Positions 43,009-59,222 of a DNA stretch of 64,000 nt are shown here, piece by piece. Both the position numbers and the translations under genes were made by a program. This DNA comes from an uncultured cyanobacterium (GTDB lineage Bacteria; Cyanobacteriota; Cyanobacteriia; PCC-6307; Cyanobiaceae), in assembly GCA_963765575.1 (NCBI GenBank), contig CAVXWZ010000011.1:32001-96000 (forward strand), read 5' to 3'. The first letter of the stretch is position 1, and every line of letters begins with the position of its first letter. The notes below the pieces were generated by a model. That model was given only the letters and a program-made list of their open reading frames with translations. It had not been told where the DNA came from and did no database searches.

Positions 43009-43434
43009 ATGGCCAAGAAAGTCGTTGCCGTAATCAAGCTGGCCCTCGATGCCGGCAAAGCCAACCCCGCGCCGCCGGTGGGTCCTGCCCTCGGTCAGCA
43101 CGGCGTCAATATCATGGCGTTCTGCAAGGAGTACAACGCCCGCACCCAGGAGAAAGCCGGCTATGTGATTCCGGTGGAGATCTCGGTCTTTGAAGACCGC
43201 AGCTTCACCTTCATCACCAAGACTCCGCCCGCCTCGGTGCTGATCTCCAAGGCCGCCGGCATTGAGAAGGGCGCCGCCACCTCCGCCATGGGGTCGGTGG
43301 GTGCCATCAGCCGCGCCCAGCTCGAGGAGATCGCCAAGACCAAGCTGCCCGACCTCAACTGCACCAGTGTGGAGTCGGCCATGCGCATCATCGAAGGCAC
43401 CGCCCGCAACATGGGCGTCGCCGTCAACGACTGA
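43009..43434 (+). CDS. rplK: 50S ribosomal protein L11
   Basis: [28 protein letters not shown]. Confidence 0.98.
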
Positions 43435-43496
43435 GCGAGCGGGCCCCCAGGGTTGCGTTGCTCTCCGTCCATTCCGATCCTTCTTATCCACTCAGC

Positions 43497-43525
43497 GGGG
43501 GAGACCCACCGGTCGCCTGCACCCC
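43497..43525 (+). promoter_or_regulatory. Putative L1-binding autoregulatory RNA element before rplA
   Basis: GGGGGAG-ACC(CACC)GGT-CG-CCTGC-ACCCC: outer GGGG/CCCC stem with internal loop and short hairpin, resembling known L1 operators. Confidence 0.55.
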
Positions 43526-43534
43526 ATTCCTGCC

Positions 43535-44242
43535 ATGCCCAAGCTGTCCAAGCGCTATTCCGACCTGGCCGCCAAGGTCGATGAGCGGTCCTACGCCCCG
43601 CTCGAGGCCATCGAGCTGGTGAAGGCCAACGCCACGGCCAAGTTCGACGAGACGATCGAGGCCCACGTGCGCCTCGGCATCGATCCCAAGTACACCGACC
43701 AGCAACTGCGCACCACCGTGGCCCTGCCCCACGGCACCGGCCAGGCCATCCGCATCGCCGTGATCGCCCGCGGTGAAGCCGTGGCCGCCGCCAAGGCCGC
43801 CGGTGCGGATCTCTCCGGCGACGACGACCTGGTGGAGGCCATCGCCAAGGGGGAGATGGACTTCGACCTGCTGATCGCCACCCCGGACATGATGCCCAAG
43901 GTGGCCAAGCTCGGCCGCGTGCTCGGCCCCCGCGGTCTGATGCCCAACCCCAAGGCCGGCACCGTGACCACCGACCTGGCCGGCGCCATCGGCGACTTCA
44001 AGGCCGGCAAGCTGGAGTTCCGCGCCGACCGCAGCGGCATCGTGCACGTGCGCTTCGGCAAGGCCAGCTTCGAGCCCGCCAAGTTGCTCGACAACCTCAA
44101 GGCCCTGCAGGAAACCATCGACCGCCAGAAGCCCAGTGGCGCCAAGGGCCGCTACTGGCGCTCCCTCTACGTCACCTCCACCATGGGTCCCTCGGTGCAG
44201 GTGGACTTCGCCGCCCTGCAGGACATCAAGCAGGAGGGTTGA
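43535..44242 (+). CDS. rplA: 50S ribosomal protein L1
   Basis: [35 protein letters not shown]. Confidence 0.98.
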
Positions 44243-44441
44243 GGCCGAGAGGAGGGCGAGGCGGCGCGGCTGCTTCCCAGGCCCTGCCTGCTTCGATGAC
44301 CGTGACGCACAGTGGCCACGGATGGCCTGGTGCCGCTGACCCCGCCGCGCTAGCGGCAGCTGGCTCCAGGCAGGCGGCAACCTTGCGGCTCTCCTGCAGC
44401 TGTTCTTTCAGGGTTGGGAGGAGGAAGCTCCCGAGGCGGAG

Positions 44442-45862
44442 GTGATCTGGAGCACCGAGGGGTCCGTGCGGCGGCGCGAGTCTGACCTCGGCGGTACGCG
44501 AGGCCCGGCGGCAGCTGGCCAGCTGTGGATGTTGGCCGGGCCGCCGCCATGTGGGTCTTTACCTCGGAGACGACAGTCCCAACCTCGTGGCTGGGTTGGC
44601 CTTCTTTCTCGATGGCCATTGCCAGATCGTGCTGCCCCAGCACGCCCCCCGTGATCAACTGAGCCAGCAGCTCATCACCATGGGCTGTGATCGGATCCTC
44701 AGCGACCAGCCTGACTTCGTGCCATCAGGCTGGCAGCCCAGGGCGACTCTGGCCTGGGCTGGCGGCCGGCTCCAGCTGCTCTGCCCTGAAGCTGAAGAGC
44801 CGCCGGGGCCAGGCTGCGCCGGATCCGGACCTCGCCTCTGCCGCGTTTCAGATCCTCTCCTCGGGAACCACCACGGGGCTTCCTTCGCTGCAGAGCCGCA
44901 CGTTTTTCTCGCTGCTCAGCTACGCCACCGCTGGCGAAGACTGGCTCTACTACACGCCCAGGCGCCTGGTGTGGCGCAACCTGCAGTTTCCCGGGCCCCG
45001 GGCCCAGCTGCTCAACCTGATCCTGGCCGGTGGCTGCCTCTGCTGGTTCTGCGCTGAGCAGGAGGATCAGCTCGGGGAGCTCTATGGCCGTAGTGGTGCC
45101 ACCCGCCTCCATCTCTTCGTGCCGCTGCTGCGGCGGCTGGTGGCCCAACAGGCCCTGCTGCGCTTCCCCGCTGAGCTGCAGTTGCTGGTCGGCACCGACC
45201 GGGTGCCAACGGCCCTGCGCGCTGCCGTGCACCGCCAGCGCCCGTCCAGCCTGGCCATCACCTACTCCACCAGCCAGTGCGGGCCGATCACGTACCTGCC
45301 CGCCAACCGGGCGCTGGAGCAGCCGGAATCGGTGGGCTGGCCGCTGCCCAACGTCCAGGTGGGGTTCATGGCGCCGCCAGACCGTGATGGGGCTGCCGAG
45401 ATCGTGGTCGACAAGACCATCACCCTGGCCTATCCCTCGCCGCTGGTCGGCTGGCAAGAGCACACCCAGTCCGTGGCGGCACTTCGCCCTGGCGATCGGT
45501 TGCGCAAACTGGACGATGGCCAGTTTCTCTATGCCGGCAGGGCCAATGATGTTTTCCTGCTGCGGGGGGTGCTGGTGTCGCCCCACGAACTGGAGGCCTT
45601 CCTGGAAGCCCAGCCCGGGGTGCTCGAGGCGGTGGCCTTCGGCGCCGAATCGAGCACCTATGGCGCGGTGCCCATGGCGGTAGTCCAGCTGGCGCCAGGA
45701 TTGGACCCCACGACAACGGCCCAGCAGCTGCAACGGCGCTCCCGGCAGCTCTTTGGTTTCCGAGGTCTCTATGCCGTTCACATCAACCAGGAGGTGCCTC
45801 GGGGAGTGGGAGGCAAGCCGCTGCGGCGGCAGCTCGCCCAGATCTACCGGCTGAACGCCTGA
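44442..45862 (+). CDS. AMP-binding (ANL superfamily) enzyme 1; frameshifts near 44480 and 44810, start uncertain
   Basis: SSGTTTGLP P-loop, YSTSQ, PGD, GRANDVFLLRGVLVSPHELE, PRGVGGK. Confidence 0.75.
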
Positions 45863-45878
45863 CCCTGCAGGCAGGGGC

Positions 45879-46382
45879 TCAGCCGCCGGGTCGTTTCAGA
45901 AAGCGCAGGGCTTCGGCACGGAATCCCCGCCGTTCATAGAAGCGGTGGGCGTCGTGGTTGGCGAATTTGGAGAACAATTGAAAGGCCCTGGCACCCCTGG
46001 CCGCCATGAACTCCTCGGAGTGAGCGAGCAGACGGTTGCCGATGCCCTTGCCGCGGTGCTCCGGGGCGACAGCCAGGGCCAGGATCCAGCCCATGGGTTC
46101 ATCACAGGTGTAAACCGGAAGCAGGATCAGGCCAATGAACCCCGTCAGCTCGCCGTTGTTGTCGGCCACGAAGCACTTGTAGAGGTGGTCGGGCATGGCC
46201 TCCAGCCGCCGCTGGATCGCCCCGGGGGTGGAGGGATAGCCGAGGCTGCCCACCAGGCAGGCGATGGCGGGGAGGTCGCTGTCGCGCAGGTCACGGATCA
46301 GGCCGGCACAGGCCGCATGGCTTTCACCGCCGCCTCCGCTTTCTGGACGGTTGTCCCAGGGCAGCTGGGCAGGAGCTGTCAC
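45879..46382 (-). CDS. GNAT-family acyltransferase
   Basis: LAVAPEHRGKGIGNRLL, AHRFYERRGF; start overlaps the stop of the upstream AMP-binding gene. Confidence 0.9.
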   Translation of the reverse strand: MTAPAQLPWDNRPESGGGGESHAACAGLIRDLRDSDLPAIACLVGSLGYPSTPGAIQRRLEAMPDHLYKCFVADNNGELTGFIGLILLPVYTCDEPMGWILALAVAPEHRGKGIGNRLLAHSEEFMAARGARAFQLFSKFANHDAHRFYERRGFRAEALRFLKRPGG

Positions 46383-47970
46383 GACCTCAGGGCAAACTGC
46401 TCGGCCAACACACGCCGCAGGGGTTTGCCCGTGGGTCCGCGGGGGACATCCTCCACGATGACGACCTGCTTGGCCGAGCGAAAACCGAGCAACTCACGAC
46501 AGTGGTCCCGAAGCTGGGCGGCGATCTCCCTTGAGACCTCCGCTTCCGCTTCACCCACGGCCGCCCGGGCCGCTACGGCTGCACGGGCAGAGCCGCTCAG
46601 CATCACAGCGGCCATCGGGATGGCTCCGTAGGGGCTGGCCGGGGCGCCGAAGGCCACGCAGTCGGCCACGTCCGGTCGCTCTCGCAGCACGTCCTCGATC
46701 TCGAATGGAGACACCAGCACGCCACAGAACAGGAACACGTCATTGGAGCGACCCCCAAATCGGATCTGTCCGGTAGAGGATCGGGCCAGCAGATCGCCGG
46801 GGTTGAAGCTGCTGGTGTCCTCAAGCAGCTCGATCCTCCCAACTGCCATCGTTCCGGGGCAACCGCAGCCAGCGGCTCTTCCGAATCACCATTTCGTGAT
46901 AATCAAGCCCCTGCTTGTGCAGCAGCGCTGGACCATGGGGTTGGAAGCTCACACTCTCAAGGGGAAAACCCACCGATTCCACCTCGTCCAGCAGCTGCTC
47001 CGGAGGTAACCAGGTGAGCGGCCCCGTCTGGCTGGTGGCATAGGTGATGCCGAGCCGCAGCTTGCCGAGAGCTCGCCACCGCTCGACGCAGGTCCATGGG
47101 GATGTGGTCCGAGCCGGTAATGCAGAGAAATCCTTCCGGAAAACGACCGAGCTGTCCCTGCTGGAGCAGGCGCCGCAGGGTCAGGGGCGGGCAGGAGAAG
47201 CCGCTGGTGTTCGGGGGCAGCGAGCTGGGATCGAGCCCATGCCCGTCGCGCACCACGATGGGCTGGCCCCGCAGCAGGTAGCGCAGCTTGAACACCCGGG
47301 AGCTGTAGTCCTGCAGGCCCGGGCCCAGCAAGGGCTGCTCCAGGAGGTCGAAGGGCGACCAGTTCAGCCCCTGCTGCAGGGAGGCCATCCTCAGAAAGCT
47401 GATCCGGTGGATGCCCGGTCGACCGGAGGTGGTGCCTGACGTGATCGACAGAAAGGCGGCCGCATCGGCTCCCGCCTCGGCACCATCGTGATCCTTGTCG
47501 AAACCCGCCCCACGCCGATCCGATGGCCCTGGATCACGGATCTCAAGCAGCTGCAGACCCTCGGCGGTGATCCCCAAAGGGCGCACCTCCGCTTCGTCCA
47601 GGGGGCACTCTCCCTCGACGAGCAGGTGGGTGAGCTCCAGCCGCCGGATCAGTTCACGCCGTTCCCGCGCTGGGGCATAGCGGGCCAGCACGGCTTGGCT
47701 CATGCCAGCCCATACCAGCGCCAGCATGGCGATCAGATGCCGGGGGGAATCGCTGGCGTGAACCCCGACCCGGATCGGCCGGGACCTGGAGCAGCCTGAC
47801 AATGGATCCTGGAGCGCCCTGCCTTCCTGACGTAGCCGCTGCAGCAACTCCAGTCCAGTGATTCCAGGCAGATCGCCCCAGTCGATGACAACAATGTCTG
47901 AGGCGGCGACGAGCCGTTGCTCGAGCTCACCACGAAGCGTGTGGATTGCAAGGTCGCACCCGCAGCTCAT
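46379..47970 (-). CDS. AMP-binding (ANL superfamily) enzyme 2; frameshifts near 47065 and 46860
   Basis: TSGTTSGRP, GITYATSQTGP, NPGDL, GRSNDVFLFCGVLVSPFEIE, PRGPTGK across three frames. Confidence 0.8.
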
Positions 47971-48995
47971 ACCGCCGGCTGTGGGCTCAGTTCGAGGCGG
48001 TCACAACAGATCTGCATAATCTGATGTCCCAGGGCGGTGAGACGACCATGCCGCTGAATGGCACCCAGGGACGACTGCGTGAGTTCCTGCACAGAGGAGC
48101 GCAGTGTCTGCAGCTCCACGACCAGCTGGTCTCGGTCGGAGCGCCAGGGCATCGGGTGGCGGATAGCGGCGTCGAGAAAGGCCACCAGCCGCGCCGCCAC
48201 ATAAAAGGAATGGAGGATGCCGTTCATCGGCCTTGGATCGCGGCGAATCAGCACGCTGTAGCGCTCCTGGTCGGTGTTGGTGCACATCAGCTCGTTCTGG
48301 GAGAGCACGAACAGTTCGGCATGGGCGTATTCGTGGATCAGGGTCACAACCCAGGCGCAAAATGTACGCTCCATTGCCGCATTGATGATGCTGCCTCCCC
48401 TGAAGAAGAAGGTGGTGGCACTGCCGAACCATTGTCCCGCCTCCCTGGCGGCCGGTCCTGGCTCGGCCAAGATCACCACGGCTTGCAGGGCTTCCATGCC
48501 CCGTGCCAGAGGGGCATCGATTTTGCCAATGAAGTCGCGAGCTTCGCTGATGATGGCTGCCTGGGTGGTGCAACGGGCCGGAGCTGGGCTCTCGAGATCG
48601 AGCAGGAAATCGCCTCCTTCCGAGAAGAGTCCCACCAGCAGATCCCAGTGCTGGAGCGGCCGCGACTCCGCTCCATAGGCCAGGACCGTCAGTGGGGGCA
48701 GGAGATGTCTGATCTCCAGCCGCAGTGCTTCGATGAGGTCCGCAGCTGGGATGGCGTCAGGGTTTTGCAGCAGGATGCGGCCGATCTTCCAGTAGAAGAG
48801 ATACACCCATGGGCTCAGGGTGTTCTGGGCTTGCTGTTCAAAACGATCCTGCAGGGCTGCTGCCAACTGTGCTTCTGCCAGTGCAGGGGAATGGCCCTCA
48901 AAGGCCTGTATTGACCAGAGCAGATCAGATCGTCCGAGTGCCAACAGCTCAACGATCGACGCTACCTCAGGTGAGGTGTCGGATTTGAGAGTCAA
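47967..48995 (-). CDS. aKG-HExxH-type peptide-modifying enzyme
   Basis: FGSATTFFFRGG, LIHEYAHAEL, IRRDPRPMNGILHSFYV. Confidence 0.8.
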   Translation of the reverse strand: MTLKSDTSPEVASIVELLALGRSDLLWSIQAFEGHSPALAEAQLAAALQDRFEQQAQNTLSPWVYLFYWKIGRILLQNPDAIPAADLIEALRLEIRHLLPPLTVLAYGAESRPLQHWDLLVGLFSEGGDFLLDLESPAPARCTTQAAIISEARDFIGKIDAPLARGMEALQAVVILAEPGPAAREAGQWFGSATTFFFRGGSIINAAMERTFCAWVVTLIHEYAHAELFVLSQNELMCTNTDQERYSVLIRRDPRPMNGILHSFYVAARLVAFLDAAIRHPMPWRSDRDQLVVELQTLRSSVQELTQSSLGAIQRHGRLTALGHQIMQICCDRLELSPQPAV

Positions 48996-49177
48996 GCAGC
49001 ATTTCCACCATTGCCGGATTCGCCTTCACCCACTTTGGCCGAAAGGTGCGACTGGCAGGTGGGAACCGAGGCCGAGTTGCTGTGGTCGGGATCAATGAAT
49101 GGATCAGAGGGCTCTGCGCCTGAATTGGCTAGTGCCAAAGCTGCGAGTCGAAAACCGAAGAGATGACTGAGTTGCAT
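48992..49177 (-). CDS. Putative precursor peptide P0 (61 aa)
   Basis: MQLSHLFGFRLAAL...HLSAKVGEGESGNGGNAA; shares LFGF and KVG with the array peptides; stop overlaps the HExxH start. Confidence 0.6.
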   Translation of the reverse strand: MQLSHLFGFRLAALALANSGAEPSDPFIDPDHSNSASVPTCQSHLSAKVGEGESGNGGNAA

Positions 49178-49399
49178 GGTTGGCACAACAATAGTGGTGA
49201 AAAGGAGAACAAGCCTGGCAGCATCACCGGTCCGCCTCTCCTTCACTCACTTTGGCCGATAGCTGGGATGGGGATGTGTCGACCGCGACAGCTAGGTGCG
49301 TCACGGTGGCCTCCCCGAGGGTGGCTGGGCTGAGGCTGGGCCCACGGTTGACATCACGTATCAGATTGCGAGAAGGTCCCATGCTGACGAGTAGCCAGT

Positions 49400-49678
49400 T
49401 TGAGCCACGACCCAGCCCCAGACCGCGAGCTCGCCATGATCGGCAGCGCCCTGCGCTCCCTCTCCCTGCCGCCGCAGGATCTTGAGGGGCTTGAGGCTGA
49501 GCTGCGTCGTGACCACGCCAGTCTGCCGATCGAGCACCTGGGGCTGGACAGCCTCGGCCGCATGGAGTTCTGCATCCACCTGGAGCTCGACCACGGGGTG
49601 GTGATCACTCCGGAAACCCTGATCACGCTGAAGACGGTGGCGGCGTTGATCGAGTCGATCCAGGCCCAGTTGGTCTGA
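49400..49678 (+). CDS. Acyl/peptidyl carrier protein
   Basis: 92 aa, acidic, LGLDSLGRMEF phosphopantetheine-site motif. Confidence 0.8.
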   Translation: MSHDPAPDRELAMIGSALRSLSLPPQDLEGLEAELRRDHASLPIEHLGLDSLGRMEFCIHLELDHGVVITPETLITLKTVAALIESIQAQLV

Positions 49679-49682
49679 ATAG

Positions 49683-50718
49683 CTAGCCCGCCAGCTCTTC
49701 GGCCCCCACATCCCAGGCCAGGGGATCCAGGCCCTCTGAAGCCTCGTCTTGGCGAGCCTCGGTTCGCAGCAGGCTGGGCATGGCCTGCTCCAGATTCACC
49801 CCCTGCAGGAGCAGGTCGTGGAACAGGGTGTGGTGGGTGCAGCCCCTGTAGACGCGTCCACTGATCCTGCTCTGGCGCCGGTGCTGCTGCTGGTAGTAGC
49901 TGGCGATCGAGCCAGCGCAGGAGCGATCGGCGGCGTTGTGTTCGGGGTAGGCGAGCACCAGGCGGGTGCGCGGCCATCGCGGCCACCAGCTGCCGATGCC
50001 GCCGTGGGCCCTGGCCACGGCGCCGCCGGGCCGGAAGGTTTGGGGTTCACCACCTGCACCGATGGCCACACCCTGGGCCAGCCCCAGCTGCTGAGCCACC
50101 ACCAAAGCGGCCAGGCCGCCGGCGCTGGTGCCCAGGGTCTGCACCTGGGAGCGGCGCAGGCCACTGCGGCTGAGCCTGCCGAGGTGCTGACGCAGATGAC
50201 GGGTGATGTCTCGCAACACCTCGCCCTGGTGATGGAAATAGCCCTCGAGAGTATGGCGCCTGCACCAGCAGAAGATCGTGCCCGATTGTGCCGAGCGCCG
50301 AGAGGATGTAGGGCGTCGGCGCCATCAGCAGCCCCACATTGCCGGTGAAGCCGATCAGCACAGGCCGGGGCGGGCCATCGGAATCCGGAAGCGGAGCGGC
50401 TTGATAATGAATGATCTCGTGATACTTTCCCGGGTGTACCCGCCGGCTATAGCGGGCTGTGGCCGTCCTGTAGGAGGGCGAAAATCGTTTGGCTTTCTGT
50501 CGCCATCGCTTGAAATCGGAACTGGCGCCTGAATCGCGACGGGCCAGCCGCAACAGCGCTGCCAGCTCGCTGCCAGTGGCGAAGCGATCGATCAGCATCT
50601 GGTGCTGGTTGATGCGATTGGTGTTCAGCGCTTTGAGTCGCTCATACCACTGCGCCGGGGATTCGGCGCGCAGCTCTCGCTCCAGCTCCTCCCAGGGAAG
50701 TTGGGGGGGGCTGGTCAT
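49683..50718 (-). CDS. Alpha/beta-hydrolase-like protein; frameshift near 50260
   Basis: VLIGFTGN in the first frame and nucleophile elbow GTSAGG in the second; ATG overlaps the upstream stop. Confidence 0.6.
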
Positions 50719-53164
50719 GTCTGCAGGGCGTACTGCTCGCTGAGCAGCCGGCGCAGGGGCTTCCCGGTTGGGCCTGCGGGAATGGCATCGAGCGCCATGA
50801 TCCGGCGGGGACGGCGCTGGCCGAGGCCAGCGCGGGCCAGCTGGTCGAGTTCGGCAAGAACAGCGGGAGCTTGATGGCCGGTCCGCAGGCGCACGGCGGC
50901 CATCGGCACGCCCCCATAGCGCTTGGATTGGGCGCCGAAGGCCACGCATTGCTCCACGGCCTCGTGCTGGCTGAGCACCTCCTCGATCTCGTAGGGAGAG
51001 ATCAGCACGCTGGCGAACAGGAAGATGTCATTGGAGCGCCCCCCGAAGATCACCTGGCCCGATGCCGAGAAGGCCAGCAGGTCGCCCGGGTTGAAGGGGC
51101 TGTAGCCGGGCGCGCACACGATCACCTCACGGAAGCTGAGTCCGTCCCGTTCGTAGCGCACCGGACCGGTGGGCTCGAGCGTGACGCCCCGCAGGGGCCA
51201 GCCCACCGAATCCTTCTCCGCCAGCAGCGCTTCCGGGGGCAACCAGGTGAGCGGCCCGCTCTGGCTGGTGGCGTAGGTGATGCCCAGGCGCACGGTGCCG
51301 ATCGCCGCCACGGCCTGCCGCAGGTCCATCGGCACCCGGTCGCTGCCGCTGATCAGCAGAAACCCTGGCGGGCAGTGGCGCAGGTCGTCCCAGGCCAGAT
51401 GCAGCCGCAGCCCGTTGGGCGGCATCGGCATGCCATCGCAGTGCTCCGGGATGCTGCCGGCGGCGAACGGGGTGTCGCTGGAGCGAATCACCAGACCGCT
51501 TCCCTTGAGCAACACCACAAACTTGAACAGGCGGGCACTCCAGTTCTGGAGCCCCTCGCCCAGCAACGGCGAACGCAGCAGGTGGAAGGGGGAGTGAGCG
51601 TCTCCTGGATGCAGCATGGAGATGGCCTTCGCCTCCACCAGCCCCGGACGGCCTGAGCTGGTGCCCGAGGTGGTGCCGATCAAGAGCACGGGATTGCTGC
51701 CAGGCGCCTCGCCACAGACTTCAGGCGTGCTCTGGCGCTGCCAGCAGCCCAGGCCCGAGGGCAGGGAGCCGAGGCGGATCCAGTCCCCGGCGGTCTGGGG
51801 AGCCGGTGGCCGATGCGGTGGGTGAGGGCGAGGCGGTGTTCGAGCGCCTCCTGCTCGCGGGTGGTGGCGGTGATGGGCAGGATGGTCTGGGGCAGGGCCG
51901 AGAGCATCAGCGCCATCCCCGTGATCAGATTCACGGGGCCGTCTTCGATCTGAATGCCCACCCGGGCGGTGACTCCCCAGGTCTTGAGGGGGATGAGGGT
52001 GTGCAGTTCGCGCCGCTCGTTGGCGACCCGTTCGGCGAGGTTGTTGTAGCTGATGCTGTGTCCCAGCCAGTCGATGGCGGTGGCATCGGGCTCGGCACGG
52101 GTCAGCTCCCGCCAGCGCTCGTTGAGCTGCTCCTGCACGGGTTGCAGTGTCCCAGCCTCAACGGCGCTGGGCAGGGATACGGTGCCCCGGCCGCACCGCT
52201 CCAGCCGTTGGGCGGCAGCGTCCACCACCACCTCGCCGATGGGGGTGAGCCTGGCGTGCTCGCGCACCACTGCCAAAGAGGAGAGGCCCTGGGCCAGCTG
52301 TTGCTCCCGCAGTTGCTGAAAGGCGGCCAGGTCCTCCGGGCCAGTGAGGAGATCCATCGGCGGCTGGCTGAGGATCGTGTCGATCACGCCGATCACCCGC
52401 GAGACCACATGCAGGGAATGGAGGATGCCGTGCATCGGGCGGGGATCGGCGCGGATCAGCACCTGGTGGCGCTCCTCGTCGCGGTTGAGGCAGAGCACCT
52501 GCTCCTGCCCCAGGGCAAACAGCTCGCCGTGGGCATACTCATGCACCAGCACCTCCACGGTGGCAGCGAGGCTGCGCGGCAGCGAGGCGTTGAGCACACT
52601 GGCGCCACGAAAGAAGAAGGCTGTGACTCCGCCGAACGACTCTCCTCGCCGTTGGGAGCGGGGCCCGGGGATCGCCAGCACAAGCAGCCGCTGAAGCCGC
52701 AGCATCAAGCCATGCAGGTCAGGGTCGACCAGGGCAATCAGACGGCGTGCGGTCTGGATTTCCTGCTTCAGGGCGTCCAGGTGCAGCGCTGAGGGGGCAG
52801 AGAGATCCTCGACGAAGTCGCCACCTTCCTGCAGCACTGCCAGCAGGGTGGTCCACATCTGCGGGGACGCCTGATCGGAATCCCCGAACGCCACAACAGT
52901 GGGCCCTTGTGCAGGTGAGCCCCTCTCAGCAACGTGACTGTCGTGAGCCAGCCCATGCTCGGCCAGGGCCAATGCGGTGGTGAAGGCCCGCTGCCGTGCC
53001 TGGGAGCCAACCGGCAGATCGGACAGCACCACTTTGCCGAGCTCGTAGTAACCGAGATAGAGCCAGGGAGAGAGGGAGGTTGGCTGGTCCTCGATCCTTT
53101 GTTGAACTGTCTGCGGCAGTAAACCCCAGCCCAGCGATGGATCATGGGCGCTCAGCAAGGACAC
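50715..53164 (-). CDS. aKG-HExxH enzyme apparently fused to AMP-binding domain 3; frameshift near 51790
   Basis: LVHEYAHGEL and IRADPRPMHGILH, then in frame EPDATAIDWLGHSISYNNLA (ANL N-terminus); next frame TSGTSSGRP, YATSQ, PGDL, GRSND, PAGPTGK. Confidence 0.75.
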
Positions 53165-53345
53165 AGAGTCGGCTGAACTGCCGGTGGGCTGTATTCACCG
53201 CTCTGTGCACGCTGGAAGCGAGGTGGTTTTCGCCTGCGATCACGGGGAGAAGCTGCTTGGGGCTAGCCGAGTGGTTGAGTTGTGGCAGACAGTTTTACTT
53301 CAGCGTGGAAAAGGTTTGTTCAAGCGGGATCGAAGCTTGGGTTGG

Positions 53346-53498
53346 TTAATTTGGAATCATTTCAACGTTGATTCCCCGATGAGGGATGTCGATCTCATAT
53401 TCTCTACCCTCTCCGCCAATTTTTGGCTGAGTGCTGGAGGGGATGGCGTCGTGAGGCGCGAAGCCAAAAAGCTCGGTGATGAGAGCGGTATTGGTCAT
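53346..53498 (-). CDS. Putative RiPP precursor P1 (50 aa)
   Basis: MTNTALITELFGFAPHDAIPSSTQPKIGGEGREYEIDIPHRGINVEMIPN. Confidence 0.8.
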   Translation of the reverse strand: MTNTALITELFGFAPHDAIPSSTQPKIGGEGREYEIDIPHRGINVEMIPN

Positions 53499-53661
53499 GG
53501 AACTGTGGAGATGTGAATTCGAAGAGAATCGATTGAAGGCGTCATGATCGAGATATTGACGCTTCTACTTAATCAAACGAGAAACTGTTGCTAGCTGGTC
53601 TTTGCGGGTGGATGAATCCAGCTGGGAGGCCGAAGCGTGGTGGCTTCGTGACCTTTAAGGC

Positions 53662-53823
53662 TCACCAGATTTCAATCGGGGGCCACGGCTTTTCTACGCC
53701 GACGTGCTCAGTGGGAAACAATGGACGTCCAACTTTCGGCTGAGTGCTGGAGGAAATGGTGTGCTGACGGGCGAAACCAAAGAGGCAACCCGCGAGAGAA
53801 ACGTTGTCAGAGAGGATGGCCAT
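53662..53823 (-). CDS. Putative RiPP precursor P2 (53 aa)
   Basis: MAILSDNVSLAGCLFGFARQHTISSSTQPKVGRPLFPTEHVGVEKPWPPIEIW. Confidence 0.8.
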   Translation of the reverse strand: MAILSDNVSLAGCLFGFARQHTISSSTQPKVGRPLFPTEHVGVEKPWPPIEIW

Positions 53824-53848
53824 TGAACAGCAAATCACAATGTGACGC

Positions 53849-53877
53849 ATTTTTGCTGGGTTGCCAGAGTTTGTCAA
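53849..53877 (-). promoter_or_regulatory. Sigma70-like promoter upstream of P2
   Basis: TTGACA-17bp-AAAAAT on the minus strand. Confidence 0.4.
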
Positions 53878-54058
53878 GCCCCAGATCCGGGACGCCATTG
53901 ATCTCCCCGTCGCTCCCCGGGTTGACAGGCGATGAAGGCGAGCTGAGGGTAGGGCTAAGGCTTGATTTTGCCCGATGGGGTTCGGTCTGATCCACCTCTG
54001 CCCTCGGCCAGGGGCTCGCCGAACGACTGAATGCTGCCAGCCACGCCAGAGCTGGTCT

Positions 54059-54196
54059 TTAGGCTGGAATGGCTTCGTATCCGGGCGGCATGGGTTGAAC
54101 TGGGATGCCATTACCCATCTTGGGCTGGATACTGGAAGGAATGCTGTATTGACGGGCGAACCCGAAAAGCTTGTTTGCGAGGGCGGGATTGGTCAT
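54059..54196 (-). CDS. Putative RiPP precursor P3 (45 aa)
   Basis: MTNPALANKLFGFARQYSIPSSIQPKMGNGIPVQPMPPGYEAIPA. Confidence 0.8.
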   Translation of the reverse strand: MTNPALANKLFGFARQYSIPSSIQPKMGNGIPVQPMPPGYEAIPA

Positions 54197-54538
54197 GGGT
54201 TAAATGAAGTGAGAGGGCTGAAGTGAAGGTGGTTTGGCTGAGGTGGCTTCAACACTTAAAGATTTCGCTCTGCCAGGGAGGGGAGGTGCGTATCATAGGC
54301 AATCTAGAGCTGAAGAGATCTCAGCGGCTCAAAAGATCAGAGACGAGTTGCTTGACCCGCCTCCTTTTCAGATTCTAATTTCGCTCTTTCCCCCGAGATT
54401 GTCAAGCAGGAGCTGAGATCGCGAGGGGAGTATTTCAACAGGACTGACGGTTCTCTTCCCATGGCGCAGCGGGGGGGGCCGCCGGACAGCCTTCCAGAAA
54501 CAGTCAGCACAGAAAGGTAAGAATGCTATTCATCAGAC

Positions 54539-54566
54539 AAACCTCTGAGCAATTGCTCAGAGGTTT
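54539..54566. repeat. Perfect 28-bp palindrome
   Basis: aaacctctgagcaa|ttgctcagaggttt. Confidence 0.9.
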
Positions 54567-55247
54567 TTACTGCTACTGATTTTGGGAATCAATTGGCGAC
54601 CTCTAACCCGTGGCACTCACCATGCGCTGCTTTGCTGGGATCGACATGATCACCAACCGGACCCCGGACGGGACTACGATTCTGGCGTTTCAGGGCCCCA
54701 TGGTTGACGATGTGGCAGGGCATCGGAAAGTGGCCAGATATGGGTGACAGCAAGACGGAGTTCAGGATCGCCTTGCGGCCTGGGCACCGCAAGGAACTGC
54801 CTGATACGGCCTAGGACAGGTTGAGCATGCCTTCCCGGTGGTTAATCAGCAGTATTGCTTTGAGAAGACATGGACTCGGGCCATGGAGAAAACCGTTGCA
54901 AGGAGATCCTGCTGACTGCACGACCAAGAAATCTGGCCTAAATGCTCAACATTCAGCCAGCGGACGTTGGCTTTGACAAGCTGTTTGGTTGACGGAGTTG
55001 AGCGGACCATGTTGCAGATAACTTCAGCAACTGCGGCTGTGTGGTAACCAAAGTTCTGTACCTGCGGGCCTTGAGATGCTTCCCGCAGGCGATCGGAGGA
55101 ACAGGGACCGGATGGGTTCCGCCAAAGCAGTAGTTGTTGAAAAATGGAGTATTAGACGCTCGCTTTTTTAGAGCGGACTAGTCCGAATTTAAGACTAATG
55201 TACTCAACTTTGCGCTCTTGAAGCTAACTCTAAGTTTCCGGGTAGTT

Positions 55248-55399
55248 TTAGTTTTCTATGATTTCGCCTGGAGGGAGAGGATTCTTTGGGCCGACATGCA
55301 CTGAGCTCTCCAATTTTGGGCTGTGTGCTGGAGGGAATCGTGTGCTGACGGGCGAAGCCGAAAGAGGCCATCGACAAGAAGCGAGCTTGAATAAGGCAT
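55248..55399 (-). pseudogene. Precursor P4 with two apparent +1 frameshifts
   Basis: MPYSSSLLVDGLF / GFARQHTIPSSTQPKIG / VHVGPKNPLPPGEIIEN* in three successive frames. Confidence 0.65.
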
Positions 55400-55672
55400 A
55401 GTCACGGCAATGTGGATGGAATTGTAGTCACCATGCATTTGCTGCCCGAATTCGACAAGCCCCCGATCCGGGCCGCCAACGGGCTCTCTGGGGGTGCCTG
55501 ACATGGTGAAAGCTTCTGGCCTAATCACCAACTCCAAAGGCGTCGCAGACCATTTGGGGCGGGTCTCAAGCCTGACTCCCCCCGATGCTGCTCTAGTGTG
55601 ATCCAACTCTGACCTTGGACAGGGGGCTCGGCGAATGACTGAACGCTGCCAGGCCCCCCCCAGAGCTGATGT

Positions 55673-55810
55673 TTACTCTGGATTGGCTTCGTAGGCGGGG
55701 GACCTGGGTCTGAAGTCTGGGCCACCACCGATCTTGGGCTGAGTGCTGGAGGGGGTGGTGTATTGAGGTGCGAAGCCAAAAAGCTTGGGGATGAGAGCGG
55801 TATTGGACAT
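55673..55810 (-). CDS. Putative RiPP precursor P5 (45 aa)
   Basis: MSNTALIPKLFGFAPQYTTPSSTQPKIGGGPDFRPRSPAYEANPE. Confidence 0.8.
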   Translation of the reverse strand: MSNTALIPKLFGFAPQYTTPSSTQPKIGGGPDFRPRSPAYEANPE

Positions 55811-56028
55811 GGAATTGCAGGAATGTGATTCGAAGGTGACCGAAAAAAGAGGCGTCGTGATCGAGATATTGATACTTTTGCTTGATCAAGCGAGAGTGTC
55901 TTTGTCGCGCTGACCTTCCCGGGGGGATGAATACAGCGTACAGATAAGGAGGGCCCCCTAGTGCCCTATGGAGTGTTGAAAGCAAGCCTCAGAGTAATTT
56001 TAGCGGTACTCTGCTTCCATCGGGGGCT

Positions 56029-56148
56029 TCACTCGCGGCGTGCACGGCGACCCCCAACTTTCGGCTGAATGCTGGAGGGAATGGTGTGCTGACGCGCGAA
56101 ACCAAAGAGGTTGGTCACGAGAGCAGGATTTCCTGAAAGCTTTGCCAC
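56029..56148 (-). CDS. Putative RiPP precursor P6 (39 aa as written; may extend to 56000 if the G5 run lacks a base)
   Basis: GTG start, MAKLSGNPALVTNLFGFARQHTIPSSIQPKVGGRRARRE; alternative tail SPCTPRVKPPMEAEYR. Confidence 0.72.
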   Translation of the reverse strand: MAKLSGNPALVTNLFGFARQHTIPSSIQPKVGGRRARRE

Positions 56149-56419
56149 TGGAGGAATTACTATGACTCCTCTCACCTTGGCCTGGTTGCCAGGGTTTGTG
56201 CAACCCCAATATCCGGGACGCCATCGACCTCTCTGGAGATCCCTGCCGACCCTGGCAGTACTCACCATTGCTCCGCGGGGCAGAGAGGCGCTGAAGCCGA
56301 GCTGAGGGCAGGGCTCAGGCTTGATATCGACCGATCGGGTGCGGTGCTGATCAGCCTCTGCCTTCGGCCAGGTGCTGGCCACGCGAGTGAACTGCTGTCA
56401 GCCACGCCAAAGCTGGTCT

Positions 56420-56548
56420 TTAGGTTGGATTGGCTTCGTAGGGGGGTTGAACTGGCGTGCCCACACCCATCTTGGGCTGAGTGCTGGAGGGGATGGTGTA
56501 TTGACGGGAGAAGCCAAACAGCTTGTTGACGAAGATGGGATTGGCCAT
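56420..56548 (-). CDS. Putative RiPP precursor P7 (42 aa)
   Basis: MANPIFVNKLFGFSRQYTIPSSTQPKMGVGTPVQPPYEANPT. Confidence 0.8.
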   Translation of the reverse strand: MANPIFVNKLFGFSRQYTIPSSTQPKMGVGTPVQPPYEANPT

Positions 56549-56705
56549 GGGATGCATCGATTGGGTGAGATAGTTGGCAAAGATGTCGGGCTTGGAGCTG
56601 AATCAAGTGAGTCCACCGAATCGCAACTGAAGCGCCAGTTCAGGCAGAAATCCAATGATCCCGGCTCAGAGCGGTGCAGGCTTGATCTTGGCAAATCGCT
56701 TATTT

Positions 56706-56734
56706 ACTTTAATTGTATCTTCCCTCTTTGTCAA
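56706..56734 (-). promoter_or_regulatory. Near-consensus sigma70 promoter heading the precursor array
   Basis: TTGACA-17bp-TAAAGT on the minus strand in an AT-rich patch about 160 bp upstream of P7. Confidence 0.6.
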
Positions 56735-56904
56735 TTTAACGATCAGTCTCCTGGGCCAGGGGCCCAGCCCGCCGCGAGGTGACGCCACCGGGGCCGATGG
56801 GTTCAGCATGCCGCTGTGCGCCGGGTCCTGGGACGGTCCAGGGTCTTTCTTGAGGGTAGGCTGCTATGGTGATGAGCTGGCTTCGGCCAGACGGGCACGC
56901 GCCC

Positions 56905-56975
56905 GACCCCAGACAGCAGGTTGGACAAGGCTCCGGTTCGCCGGTGAATCCTTATTCGTAAGCCCTGCCGAGGTG
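56905..56975 (+). promoter_or_regulatory. L10 leader (rplJ autoregulatory RNA)
   Basis: AGACAGCAGG...CCTGCCGAGG motif upstream of rplJ. Confidence 0.75.
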
Positions 56976-57142
56976 AACGCGACAGGTTTCAGCCTCCAGT
57001 GCACCAGCGGCCTCCTGCCGCCGGCGAGCTGGTCGGGCCCGGAGCATGCAGCGGCCTCGCCACCAGTTCTGAGCCGTTTCCCGGCGCAGACGGTGTCCCA
57101 GGGCCGCGTACCCCGCTTGTTCCCCCGATCCGTTCCTTCCCT

Positions 57143-57676
57143 ATGGGCCGCACGCTGGAGAGCAAGCAACAGATCGTCGAAGAGCTCAAGGGGCTCCTCG
57201 GTGACGCCGAAATGGCGCTGGTCCTTGATTACAAGGGCCTGTCCATCAAGGAGATGTCTGACCTGCGGACCCGTCTGCAGGCCAGCAACGGTGTCTGCAA
57301 GGTGACCAAGAACACCTTGATGCGCCGGGCCATTGATGGCGACAGCGCCTGGTCGGAACTCGATTCCCTGCTCACTGGCACCAACGCCTTCGTGCTCATC
57401 AAGGGCGACGTGGGTGGTGCGGTGAAGGCCCTGCAGTCCTTCCAGAAGGACAGCAAGAAATCGGAAACGAAAGGAGGCCTGTTCGAAGGCAAGCTCCTCT
57501 CGCAAGCCGAAATCCAGGCCATCGGGGATCTGCCCTCCAAGGAGGTGCTCATGGCCCAGATCGCCGGTGCGATCAATGCCGTGGCCACCCAACTGGCGGT
57601 GGGCATCAACGAAGTTCCCTCCGGCCTCGCCCGGGCGCTCCAGCAGCACGCCGATGGCGACGGTTCGGCCTCCTGA
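57143..57676 (+). CDS. rplJ: 50S ribosomal protein L10
   Basis: [35 protein letters not shown]. Confidence 0.97.
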
Positions 57677-57750
57677 GGCCAACCCGCGATCGGCCCTGCA
57701 GGGCTCCTCGATTCGACTGTTTCCCACAGATCTGTTGCTGATTCTCAACC

Positions 57751-58140
57751 ATGACCGCTACCACTGACCAGATTCTCGACCAGCTCAAAACCCTCTCCCT
57801 GCTGGAAGCTTCCGAGCTCGTCAAGCAGATCGAAGAGGCCTTCGGTGTGTCTGCCGCCGCCTCCGCCGGGGTGGTGATGGCCGCTCCCGGCGCCGGCGGT
57901 GCCGCCGCTGAAGCCGTGGAGGAGCAAACCGAATTCGATGTGATCCTCGACGGTTTCGACGCCGCCGCCAAGATCAAGGTGCTCAAGGCCGTGCGCGAAG
58001 CCACCGGCCTCGGCCTCGGCGATGCCAAGGCCCTGGTGGAGGCCGCTCCCAAGGCGGTCAAGGAAGGCATCACCAAAGACGACGCCGAAGCCCTCAAGAA
58101 GGCCATCGAGGAGGTGGGCGGCAAGGTCACCATCAAGTGA
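57751..58140 (+). CDS. rplL: 50S ribosomal protein L7/L12
   Basis: [42 protein letters not shown]. Confidence 0.98.
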
Positions 58141-58174
58141 TCAGCTGCTGATGCCTCAGCCCCGGCTGAGCCCG

Positions 58175-58199
58175 CCGGCCCCCAGGGGCCGGTTTTTTT
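58175..58199 (+). terminator. Rho-independent terminator after rplL
   Basis: ccggcccc...ggggccgg hairpin followed by T7. Confidence 0.85.
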
Positions 58200-58226
58200 A
58201 TGGCAGCCTGCGCCAAAAGCCGGCAC

Positions 58227-58251
58227 AAAAAAAACCCCGCCGAAGGCGGGG
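58227..58251 (-). terminator. Rho-independent terminator of the convergent gene
   Basis: A8 then ccccgcc-gaa-ggcgggg. Confidence 0.8.
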
Positions 58252-58388
58252 CTCAGGGCTTGGAACGGTTTCCGGGAGTCTGTCCTCGTTTCGACCCCGG
58301 AATGGTCGTTCCGCACTCCTCACACCCCATGAACATAAAAGATGGTGAGGTGTGCAGCAAGGCTTGGGGGACACTCCTGCGATTGGTC

Positions 58389-59222
58389 TCAGGGCCGATA
58401 GGGCACCACCTGCAGGGCGATCACGCCGCCGGCCTCCGCCTCGGCGCTCGTGTTCTCCTGCGACCAGGCGCGAGCCCCCGGGCGGCCCAGGCGCAGGCTC
58501 TCCAGCCGGGCCAGGCGGGACTGGCTCGTGCTCGACCGGGAGACTCCCCTGGAGTCCCTGGAGCTGCGGGAGCTGGCGGCCCTGGCGGTGGCGGTGTCCA
58601 GCGCGCTGGGGGGCGGCGGCGGTGTGGCCAGGCCGAGCAGGGGGTCGCCACCGGCGTTCGCCCGGGCCAGCAGCACCGGCAGCGGCTCCGCGTTGCTCAC
58701 ATAGAGGTGTTGGAGGCTCTGGCCGCCGAACACGCGACGCTCGAAGGCCCAGCCTTCAGCCAGTTGCAGCTCCACCAAGCCGTCGCCGCTGGGCTCGGCG
58801 CTGCCCACCACCAGGGGGCTGGACTGCTCGGGGCTGCTGGCCAGCAGCTCCAGGCGCCCGCCGCGGCTCTCCACCCGCAGGCGCCAGGGATGGCTGAGGT
58901 CGTCGCCGGCGATGCGCAGAGAGTAGGCGCTGCTGGAGGAGTAGAGGCCGCAGCTGGTGGCGGGCAGGTCCTTCTCGTAGGTGGCCACCGAGCCGTCGTC
59001 GAAGCGACGCCAGCAGGGGCGGGTTGGTTCGAGCTGCTCGAGCACGACCAGGTTCCAGCGGTTGCCGCTGAGGGGCTGGGCCAGGGCCATGGTGCGCTCG
59101 GCCTCCACCGGGGCGCTGTCGAAGCGCGCGGCCGCCCGGGCCCACTGCTGGGGCAGGACAGCGGCCGCGAGGCTCACTGCCCCTGCGGCTGCCAGGTAGC
59201 GTCGCTTCAGCCTCAAGGTCAT
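58389..59222 (-). CDS. DUF3747-family cyanobacterial exported protein
   Basis: Signal peptide; WNLVVLEQL..RPCW, YSLRI, GWAFERR..LQHLY motifs. Confidence 0.7.
   Translation of the reverse strand: MTLRLKRRYLAAAGAVSLAAAVLPQQWARAAARFDSAPVEAERTMALAQPLSGNRWNLVVLEQLEPTRPCWRRFDDGSVATYEKDLPATSCGLYSSSSAYSLRIAGDDLSHPWRLRVESRGGRLELLASSPEQSSPLVVGSAEPSGDGLVELQLAEGWAFERRVFGGQSLQHLYVSNAEPLPVLLARANAGGDPLLGLATPPPPPSALDTATARAASSRSSRDSRGVSRSSTSQSRLARLESLRLGRPGARAWSQENTSAEAEAGGVIALQVVPYRP

Follow-up and report, generated by a model that had tools for sequence, protein, structure and literature searches.

Prochlorosins are class II lanthipeptide libraries of marine picocyanobacteria, encoded by many precursor genes with a conserved N-terminal part and divergent C-terminal parts, and to our knowledge they are the only well-known peptide libraries of these organisms. 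Here, an array of small genes from the same host group is described. It lies in a window of 64,000 nucleotides (nt) from an uncultured cyanobacterium of the family Cyanobiaceae (GenBank assembly GCA_963765575.1, contig CAVXWZ010000011.1, positions 32,001 to 96,000 of the forward strand), where seven small open reading frames (ORFs), P1 to P7, occupy 53346-56557 on the minus strand and carry a common 19-residue box followed by divergent Pro/Glu-rich tails. Judged from their sequences and neighbors, P1 to P7 probably represent an expanded precursor set of an uncharacterized pathway of the RiPP (peptide made on the ribosome and modified after translation) kind in picocyanobacteria (Prochlorococcaceae). 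Its predicted machinery consists, in gene order, of an Fe/alpha-ketoglutarate (aKG) HExxH oxygenase, a tightly coupled adenylate-forming (ANL) enzyme, and a Ser-Asp-His alpha/beta hydrolase. This cassette is flanked by rplA and rplJ and runs on the strand opposite to theirs.

In contrast to the prochlorosins, the genes form one tandem array beside the enzyme genes, in seven copies and not dozens, and no Nif11/NHLP leader was matched at E ≤ 1. No LanM was present among the scanned ORFs of the region from 38.7 to 64 kb, the rest of the genome not having been searched. Plesiocin-type multi-core graspetides, made by ATP-grasp ligases, provide a second comparison. The relatives of the present peptides likewise hold two to four repeats of a Ser/Thr-Lys-rich unit, then Glu, after one putative N-terminal recognition element, and both systems include an ATP-dependent carboxylate-activating enzyme. 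Here, however, this enzyme is an ANL protein (acyl-adenylate), and the scanned ORFs of the window island and of the related loci contained no ATP-grasp domain. Cross-linking as in graspetides can only be hypothesized.

The closest enzymes are the aKG-HExxH RiPP oxygenases, namely, ChlBH/ChlH of triceptide-type clusters, BpmH of biphenomycins, PflC/PosC, and PesO, which fall into the same family by NCBIfam model, profile, and predicted fold, and whose genes adjoin small precursor genes, as here. In the accessible text of two reports (PMC12636437 and PMC13060819), all published members act on RiPP precursors, with hydroxylation of His, Asp, Phe, Gln, and Pro plus oxidative backbone cleavage. Asp and His are the targets of ChlBH-type enzymes, Gln is hydroxylated by PflC/PosC, which also cleave the backbone oxidatively (alpha-hydroxylation and cleavage being favored by small residues, for instance Ala and Gly), and Pro is the target of PesO. 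According to the authors, the reactions “at present cannot be predicted” (PMC13060819). The partners named in these texts are radical SAM, MNIO, asparagine-synthetase-like, and GNAT enzymes, whereas the partners here are an ANL enzyme and an alpha/beta hydrolase. Selidamides, some of them cyanobacterial, are RiPPs whose Lys/Orn side chains are fatty acylated by a GNAT enzyme (accessible text of PMC13647313). The peptides described here contain an invariant Lys, and a second cassette in the window adds a GNAT gene, an acyl-carrier-protein (ACP)-like ORF, and extra ANL genes, which hints at acyl transfer of this kind. Unlike in selidamides, GNAT and ACP lie outside the minimal cassette of the relatives, and the Nif11/NHLP leaders with Gly-Gly sites described for selidamide precursors in the same text are not seen.

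A RiPP-type cluster as a kind and the oxygenase family are thus already known. The LFGF...K-V-G precursors match no described family. Neither this family nor the combination of HExxH, ANL, and hydrolase nor the array of seven genes is present in Pfam/NCBIfam, and none of them was found in the literature, nor was any description of an ANL partner with HExxH in RiPP maturation, subscription-only papers and supplements being outside the search.

Seven small genes share a box and differ in their tails

The box has the form LFGF-x12-K-[IVM]-G and is read in frame in six of the seven ORFs. P7 (56420-56557, 45 amino acids [aa], ATG start, tail VGTPVQPPYEANPT), P5 (55673-55810, 45 aa, ATG, tail GGPDFRPRSPAYEANPE), and P3 (54059-54196, 45 aa, ATG, tail NGIPVQPMPPGYEAIPA) carry a QY-type box and alternate along the array with P6, P4, and P2, which carry a QH-type box. 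P2 (53662-53823) has 53 aa counted from its ATG and the tail RPLFPTEHVGVEKPWPPIEIW, and its ORF remains open further upstream. P6 (56029-56148) starts with GTG and meets a stop in the frame of its box after GGRRARRE; a family-like tail, SPCTPRVKPPMEAEYR, lies in another frame beyond a run of five G and reaches down to 56000 (ORF 56000-56224), so that a frame change would separate the two parts, no contig having been seen over this site. P4 (about 55248-55399) is the exception to the in-frame rule. Its start MPYSSSLLVDGLF, box, and tail VHVGPKNPLPPGEIIEN lie in three frames, and the box reads SFGF with one extra base between LF and GF. P1 (53346-53498, 50 aa, ATG) has the box LFGFAPHDAIPSSTQPKIG and the tail GEGREYEIDIPHRGINVEMIPN. 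Peptides with the full box are exemplified by P7, MHPMANPIFVNKLFGFSRQYTIPSSTQPKMGVGTPVQPPYEANPT, and P3, MTNPALANKLFGFARQYSIPSSIQPKMGNGIPVQPMPPGYEAIPA.

An ATG stands nine codons ahead of LFGF in P1, P3, P5, and P7, and the start lies 11 to 13 codons ahead in all three QH-type genes (ATG at 13 codons in P2, GTG at 13 in P6, and ATG at 11 in P4), like in the relatives described below. The QY-type tails follow the form P-x-YEA-x-P and the QH-type tails the form PP-x-E.

An initial annotation, made from the sequence alone, had listed seven minus-strand ORFs with a common box, and all of them are found at the places it gave. A repeat finder returned a 71-nt unit in seven copies with 66 to 79% identity to the reference copy, and a peptide profile run against the 2.71-Mb genome matched exactly these seven places. 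The regular expression LFGF..K[VIM]G gave seven matches in 5.33 million six-frame residues, none outside the island, and these correspond to six P copies and precursor B1 of the second cassette. Such a recurrence far exceeds chance. Every tail that the annotation listed was reproduced, including those of P4 and P6 in a frame other than that of the box, as it had suspected. The motif P-x(0-2)-[YIGM]-E, said to recur near the C termini, is present in six of the seven tails, and P1 has N-V-E instead. The array had also been called hidden, which holds only in part, P7 being already a predicted protein (P0015) in a public record of the contig. The statement that the leader is not Nif11-like agrees with the domain scan, in which P1 to P7 and nine relatives matched none of the Pfam or NCBIfam families, Nif11 and NHLP included, at E ≤ 1.

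The spacers that follow the QY-type genes (56149-56419, 55400-55672, and 53824-54058, minus strand; 235 to 270 nt) are conserved in three copies. Within them, a start of the sequence ATG-GCG-TCC-CGG-AT... (MASRI...) is conserved, and it shares the frame of P2 but not that of the P6 box. This element may be a candidate longer leader, a 5′ untranslated region element, or merely duplicated DNA, and longer gene models of P2 and P6 that begin at its ATG compete with the nearer starts. A promoter-like site was noted at 56734-56706, upstream of P7; the promoter and terminator scan gave two and two sites, not above shuffled sequences, and the tRNA scan gave none.

The array is protein coding and arose by duplication of a three-gene unit

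P1 to P7 are real protein-coding genes. In pairwise comparisons of the 19 codons of the box, the copies differed on average by 0.12 at the first, 0.10 at the second, and 0.41 at the third codon position, with a pooled pS of 0.53 against a pN of 0.11. The pN/pS ratio was low in all pairs, P4 and P6 included, and no in-frame stop occurred inside the boxes. Since the variation sits mostly at third codon positions, selection acts on the protein, as the initial annotation had proposed from the synonymous changes in the box. The motif is also kept in other genomes with different codons, spacer lengths, and G+C (GC) contents. Conservation at the nucleotide level only, which the annotation had named as one of the findings that would speak against its proposal, is therefore not what is seen.

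The array consists of a duplicated three-gene unit (P7-P6-P5 and P3-P2-P1), P4, and an IS5 remnant. The segment 56551-55725 aligns with 54199-53413 over 848 nt at 69.6% identity, and the copies are separated by P4 together with a spacer of roughly 1 kb. Between the copies of the triplet, the boxes are 82 to 93% identical, the intergenic DNA 64 to 75%, and the tails 76% in the pair P7/P3, 40% in P6/P2, and 43% in P5/P1. From these values, constraint on the box is tighter than on neutral DNA, whereas in two of the three pairs the tails have diverged faster than such DNA. The GC content is 0.55 in the array, compared to 0.69 in the window and 0.65 to 0.69 in the adjoining enzyme genes.

The remnant of an IS5-type (DUF772) transposase gene (54618-54691, 74 nt, plus strand) is located in the spacer 54200-55200 between P4 and P3. 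With positions 5815-5888 of contig C9, inside a DUF772 transposase ORF, it shares 85% identity, and it reached very high depth in metagenome contigs. The remnant may be the trace of an event by which the two triplets were separated or rearranged.

Three enzyme genes adjoin the array

HExxH-A, an aKG-HExxH-type peptide oxygenase gene (52202-53243, minus strand), starts about 100 nt downstream of P1. It matched TIGR04267 (“aKG-HExxH-type peptide beta-hydroxylase”) with 74 bits and an E value of 1.4e-20 at a cutoff of 40. Its first 33 codons are in another frame (change near 53175), and its ORF reads without a stop into ANL-A, so that the two are fused in the window. The HExxH motif and the segment R-x-D-x-R-P...L-H are invariant in 14 sequences, and both are covered by the alignment of the family profile to ChlH (8s5f). 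On these sequence grounds, HExxH-A and the second oxygenase of the window, HExxH-B, belong to the aKG-HExxH family (IPR026337/TIGR04267), the activity being predicted. HExxH-A is 54% identical to its homolog in Cyanobium sp. ATX 6A2 and is placed in the tree as sister to that enzyme (support 91/99). A predicted complex of HExxH-A (338 aa, the N terminus missing by the frame change) and P3 scored 0.02 and was used neither way.

ANL-A (50718-52138, minus strand), encoding an adenylate-forming (AMP-binding) enzyme, has one frame change at about 51785-51806. In a tblastn search with the ANL protein of the related locus L010, it was recovered in two pieces, 52% and 72% identical, and it matched AMP-binding_C with an E value of 8e-11. 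Across the ANL genes, AMP-binding_C scored 42 to 49 bits against a cutoff of 24.5, and the N-terminal domain was weakly recognized (about 30 bits). The TSGTxSG P-loop, the Asp of GDL, the GGRxND hinge, and the lysine of PxGxxGK are invariant in all 11 sequences. Otherwise, these proteins are remote from characterized ligases, the best PDB matches covering the C-terminal domain only, with E values of about 1e-12.

The third gene, g3 (49695-50739, minus strand; one frame change at about 50221-50264), encodes an alpha/beta-fold serine hydrolase that is 70 to 71% identical to g3 of L010, in two frames. The Ser (in LGTSxGGLAAL), Asp, and His are invariant in nine homologs. For the model of the L010 protein (pLDDT 81.6), the nearest solved folds were esterases at TM 0.37 to 0.40; the list also contained lipases, thioesterases, and, lower down, lasso-peptide isopeptidase, all at TM of about 0.4. 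Comparison with predicted-structure clusters of the S9 peptidase/DLH type gave TM 0.56 to 0.64. The assignment of g3 as an S9-type leader peptidase was dropped after the PDB fold search with its esterases at TM of about 0.4, in favor of the general term serine hydrolase.

Peptide and cassette are inherited together in relatives

Relatives were collected from 12 homologs (323 to 381 aa) of the HExxH-A ORF (494 aa) in a collection of 5.8 billion proteins, the sole one with a named organism being that of Cyanobium sp. ATX 6A2. Pattern scans with the homolog alignment yielded eight cyanobacterial and three proteobacterial reference-genome loci and 12 metagenome loci. Among 400 genomes of the same family, HExxH matches at E ≤ 1e-10 occurred in 10, and within the same genus in 4 of 29.

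The small genes are coinherited with an oxygenase of a peptide-modifying family, an adenylating enzyme, and a serine hydrolase. An LFGF peptide stands beside HExxH in 19 of 20 cyanobacterial-type loci and in both of two further genomes (21/22), and at the single locus without a peptide the contig starts inside the HExxH gene, with no upstream DNA. The colocation with HExxH genes that the initial annotation had proposed for a search is thus seen both in the window and in the relatives. None of the seven loci with distant HExxH homologs has an LFGF peptide. The order HExxH-ANL-hydrolase is fixed: ANL follows HExxH in 18 of 22 loci, the contigs of the other four ending first, and g3 follows ANL in 12 of the 13 loci with enough DNA, missing in L014. 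HExxH and ANL frames in L010 are separated by one in-frame stop codon. The peptide gene is upstream of HExxH in most loci and downstream in L011 and L017. The chromosomal setting recurs as well: 12 loci have rplJ-rplL upstream, on the opposite strand, and 11 have rplA downstream, except that in L022 rplA is on the other side. Cassette GC ranges from 0.27 (L025) to 0.67.

The small ORFs of the relatives number one to three per locus and begin with M-x(2-10)-LFGF[RKQ]L, followed by S-x-(L)-S/T-A/T-K-V/I/M-G and then Glu/Asp, often E-P. The Cyanobium ATX 6A2 locus has a short-spacer set of three precursor genes running to the contig end. In an exhaustive profile search of 1.84 billion representatives, four matches were obtained, namely, P7 itself, the small metagenome proteins P0016 and P0018 as genuine relatives, and a 1,981-aa eukaryote-like repeat protein that aligned solely at AAKLFGFIENWSIPSF and was judged spurious. 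Two weak profile matches in the 400 genomes (E values of 0.004 and 0.008, 17 to 18 bits) were not LFGF peptides on inspection. A word-indexed homolog search with P3 returned no candidate; as the index is poor in small ORFs, this is not evidence of absence.

The three proteobacterial loci have no ANL and different tandem peptides. Tandem small ORFs of the form M-x-K-x-I-K-L-D-x-x-K-L-L-G-x-x-x-x-G-x-x-M-A-G stand ahead of distant HExxH homologs in Rhizobiaceae and a gammaproteobacterium (L018, 3650-3916; L019, 9029-9142; L020, 2142-2539), with glycosyl- and sulfotransferase genes adjoining and no ANL nearby, and may be a separate precursor family.

Proposed roles of box, unit, and tail

Given this association, P1 to P7 are quite likely to be substrates of the three enzymes. 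How the peptides are divided is a more evenly balanced matter, with about even chances that LFGF is a recognition element and the tails are diversified cores. In the mechanism proposed here, the enzymes would recognize the N-terminal LFGF element, the S-x-K-[VIM]-G unit would mark a junction or processing site, and the Pro/Glu-rich tails would be the diversified part. The array would then amount to a small combinatorial library with two alternating box types, generated through duplication of the three-gene unit. Individual reactions are guesses, each with rather poor prospects of being correct: the oxygenase would hydroxylate a tail residue (candidates are Pro, Glu, and Asp) or cut oxidatively at the invariant Gly; the ANL enzyme would activate a peptide carboxylate (Glu or the C terminus) for attack by the invariant Lys or Ser, or alternatively a small acid that acylates Lys; and the hydrolase would trim or release the product.

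The library pattern of real small genes that the initial annotation had recognized is borne out, the split into leader and core being left unsettled by the peptides of the relatives, in which the unit or the box is repeated. The K-[VIM]-[GSA] unit occurs two to four times per peptide in 7 of 27 distinct peptides. In L025 (441-686), there are four copies of DSSLTTKVGE (for example, LFGFKLLTQKEKFEEISSDSTLSSKVGEVALDVDSSLTTKVGEKILVDSSLTTKVGERILIDSSLTTKVGENE), and in L029 (37-255), three repeats, the common form being DSSLT(T/S)KVGE; both precursors are lysine-rich, and the same HExxH is found beside both, in L025 (GC 0.27) together with ANL. Two to three copies of the unit are present in L021 to L023 and L010, and P0016 and P0018, which are of the short-spacer type, contain the whole box of 19 to 20 residues twice (for example, MISDLFGFDLQNQAPSTVQAKVGEPPVNPEPSELFGFELQNQTPSSVQAKVGEPVGVNPEPLAPDAA). 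Judging by these peptides, the S-x-K-V-G unit appears to behave as a repeatable module, either a modified site or a mark before each variable segment. An acidic residue follows K-x-G after zero to two residues in all 20 nonwindow peptides and after 1 to 12 residues in the window P peptides. An E-(x0-2)-P motif is present in 23 of 27 tails.

The most serious competitor keeps the pathway and reverses the anatomy, so that all or just the second half of the LFGF...S-x-K-[VIM]-G box would be the modified core, comparable to the conserved cores of multi-core graspetides and fungal dikaritins, and the variable acidic or Pro-rich stretches would be discarded spacers or followers. The repetition of unit or box inside single peptides of relatives speaks for it, as do the nucleophile-type residues (Ser/Thr and Lys) of the unit, followed by Glu. 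It is nevertheless the less probable anatomy, with something short of one chance in three: in two of three pairs, the tails diverge faster than the intergenic DNA (40 to 43% against 64 to 75% identity), which is the usual mark of diversified cores, and each window peptide contains a single box, with a long tail in which a separate motif, P-x-Y/I/M-E, recurs.

Returning to P1 to P7 as a precursor set with diversified tails, several observations weigh against it. What repeats inside the peptides of relatives is the conserved box and not the tail, which disfavors a simple order of leader, then core. The acidic residue stands later in the P peptides, which may therefore not be substrates equivalent to those of the relatives. 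The peptide profile found the P-type box nowhere else in the 400 family genomes, and only P0016 and P0018 carry it among the 1.84 billion representatives. No transporter and no recognizable leader-binding domain were seen among the scanned ORFs of the island and the relatives, and the esterase-like folds of g3 at low TM give a protease role no specific support. The array contains an insertion sequence remnant, and two of its seven genes (P4 and P6) as well as most enzyme genes of the island are broken, so that the pathway could be inactive in this strain.

A stronger version of the proposal is rather doubtful, somewhat more so than the reversed anatomy. In it, the locus would define a new RiPP class in which ANL, together with the HExxH oxygenase, performs the class-defining step on the repeatable S-x-K-[VIM]-G plus Glu unit, as Lys/Ser-to-Glu macrocyclization via an acyl-adenylate or as direct acylation of Lys, with a seven-member library of two types in the rplKAJL row. 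If macrocyclization, this step would use an acyl-adenylate instead of the acyl-phosphate of ATP-grasp enzymes. If the chemistry is plain hydroxylation and trimming, the peptides would form a routine new RiPP family. Recognition of aKG-HExxH enzymes as RiPP tailoring enzymes is recent. The cassette offers a compact test case with at most four genes, and the new precursor family can be mined by a simple motif. Picocyanobacteria of the Cyanobium/Synechococcus type are abundant primary producers. A second library-type system, unrelated to prochlorosins, patchy (10/400 genomes), and at a constant chromosomal site, would be relevant to the question of how diversity of this kind arises and is passed between genomes.

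Frame changes and the remaining alternatives

About ten single-base frame changes are concentrated in 12 kb of island DNA. Broken genes are P4 (twice), P6 (at least once), HExxH-A, ANL-A, g3, ANL-B (twice), and ANL-C, while the flanking genes clpB, nusG, rplA, rplJ, rplL, and pyrD are unbroken. The extra bases in P4 are at about 55360 (inside LF|GF) and about 55306. The frame-change sites were checked on contigs from two marine-metagenome DNA runs (shares 0.09 and 0.05). Over 55229-55421, a first contig shows 0 substitutions in 193 nt relative to the window and differs from it only in missing a single base at 55306 and another at 55360; in a second contig, an additional C behind 51806 brings, by frame arithmetic, the two ANL-A frames together; and a third has one base fewer at 53175, the position of the HExxH-A frame change. 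At each of the four sites that these near-identical or closely related contigs cover, the frame is thus unbroken. The breaks in the window would be assembly indels or very recent events, with assembly indels the likelier of the two. They could be a polishing artifact confined to strain-specific DNA.

These breaks also bear on a reading of array and cassette as a decaying relic in this strain, duplicated, hit by an insertion sequence, and inactivated by frameshifts, whose ORFs yield no products. Ten or so frame changes in 12 kb next to intact flanking genes would suit it, and so would the IS5 remnant and the low GC of the array compared to the window. Such a decay is improbable because indel errors of assembly or very recent events fit better with contigs that are unbroken and otherwise identical, as over P4; moreover, the boxes are free of in-frame stops, and pN/pS is low across all pairs, the broken P4 and P6 included.

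Still less probable, and by a clear distance, P1 to P7 would be small proteins that are unmodified or otherwise used (in signaling, immunity, or regulation) and merely neighbors of the enzymes. In its favor, no transporter or dedicated protease was recognized in the scanned ORFs; however, peptide and HExxH-ANL occur together in 21 of 22 loci across a GC range of 0.27 to 0.67 and in both gene orders, and the enzyme family is known solely from peptide modification in the accessible text of PMC12636437 and PMC13060819.

A noncoding repeat, in which a structured RNA or DNA mimics a reading frame, is effectively refuted despite the conserved intergenic DNA of the duplicated block (64 to 75%) and spacers after P7, P5, and P3 that can be drawn as hairpins, because the third codon position varies three to four times as much as positions 1 and 2, the amino acid motif is kept elsewhere with other codons, spacer lengths, and GC, the Rfam scan of 44000-58500 gave no match in the array, and a consensus fold of the three conserved spacers had no covariation support (covariation term +2.24, unfavorable).

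Second cassette and island borders

The island (44.3 to 56.7 kb) interrupts the nusG-rplK-rplA-rplJ-rplL row between rplA and rplJ. Its left border is rplA (43262-44242, plus strand; TIGR01169, E value of 2e-97) and its right border rplJ (56999-57676, plus strand; NF000955, E value of 2e-45). Besides the array and its three enzyme genes, it contains a second cassette. Precursor B1 (48992-49177, minus strand) begins with MQLSHLFGFRL and continues with SHLSAKVGEGE, and B2 (49224-49382, minus strand), with SQLSAKVSEGE and LFGF in no frame, is possibly a degenerate precursor. The intact HExxH-B (47967-48995, minus strand, 342 aa) matched TIGR04267 with an E value of 1.5e-19 and 70.7 bits (cutoff 40). 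Its AlphaFold model (pLDDT 88.7) aligned over the full length with the HExxH domain of ChlBH (8s5f) at TM 0.70 and an E value of 2.5e-11, and the next unrelated folds, zinc metallopeptidases, reached TM 0.27 or less. HExxH-B forms a lone long branch in the tree. An origin of the two window cassettes by recent duplication was ruled out, as HExxH-A and HExxH-B are 36% identical and stand apart in the tree.

ANL-B (46382-47937, minus strand) is read in three frames, with changes at about 47070 and about 46840, and is followed by a GNAT-family acetyltransferase gene (45879-46382, minus strand) that matched several GNAT models with E values of about 1e-13. A third, partial ANL gene, ANL-C (44551-45859, plus strand), has a frame change at about 44850. 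The ACP-like ORF (49400-49678, plus strand; PF00550 PP-binding, E value of 1.3e-7, 32 bits, cutoff 20.8) is placed between g3 and the precursors of the second cassette, on the opposite strand. Outside the array, a Cyano-1 RNA (RF01701; 44.7 bits against a gathering score of 41) was detected at 58259-58329 on the minus strand, just downstream of rplL.

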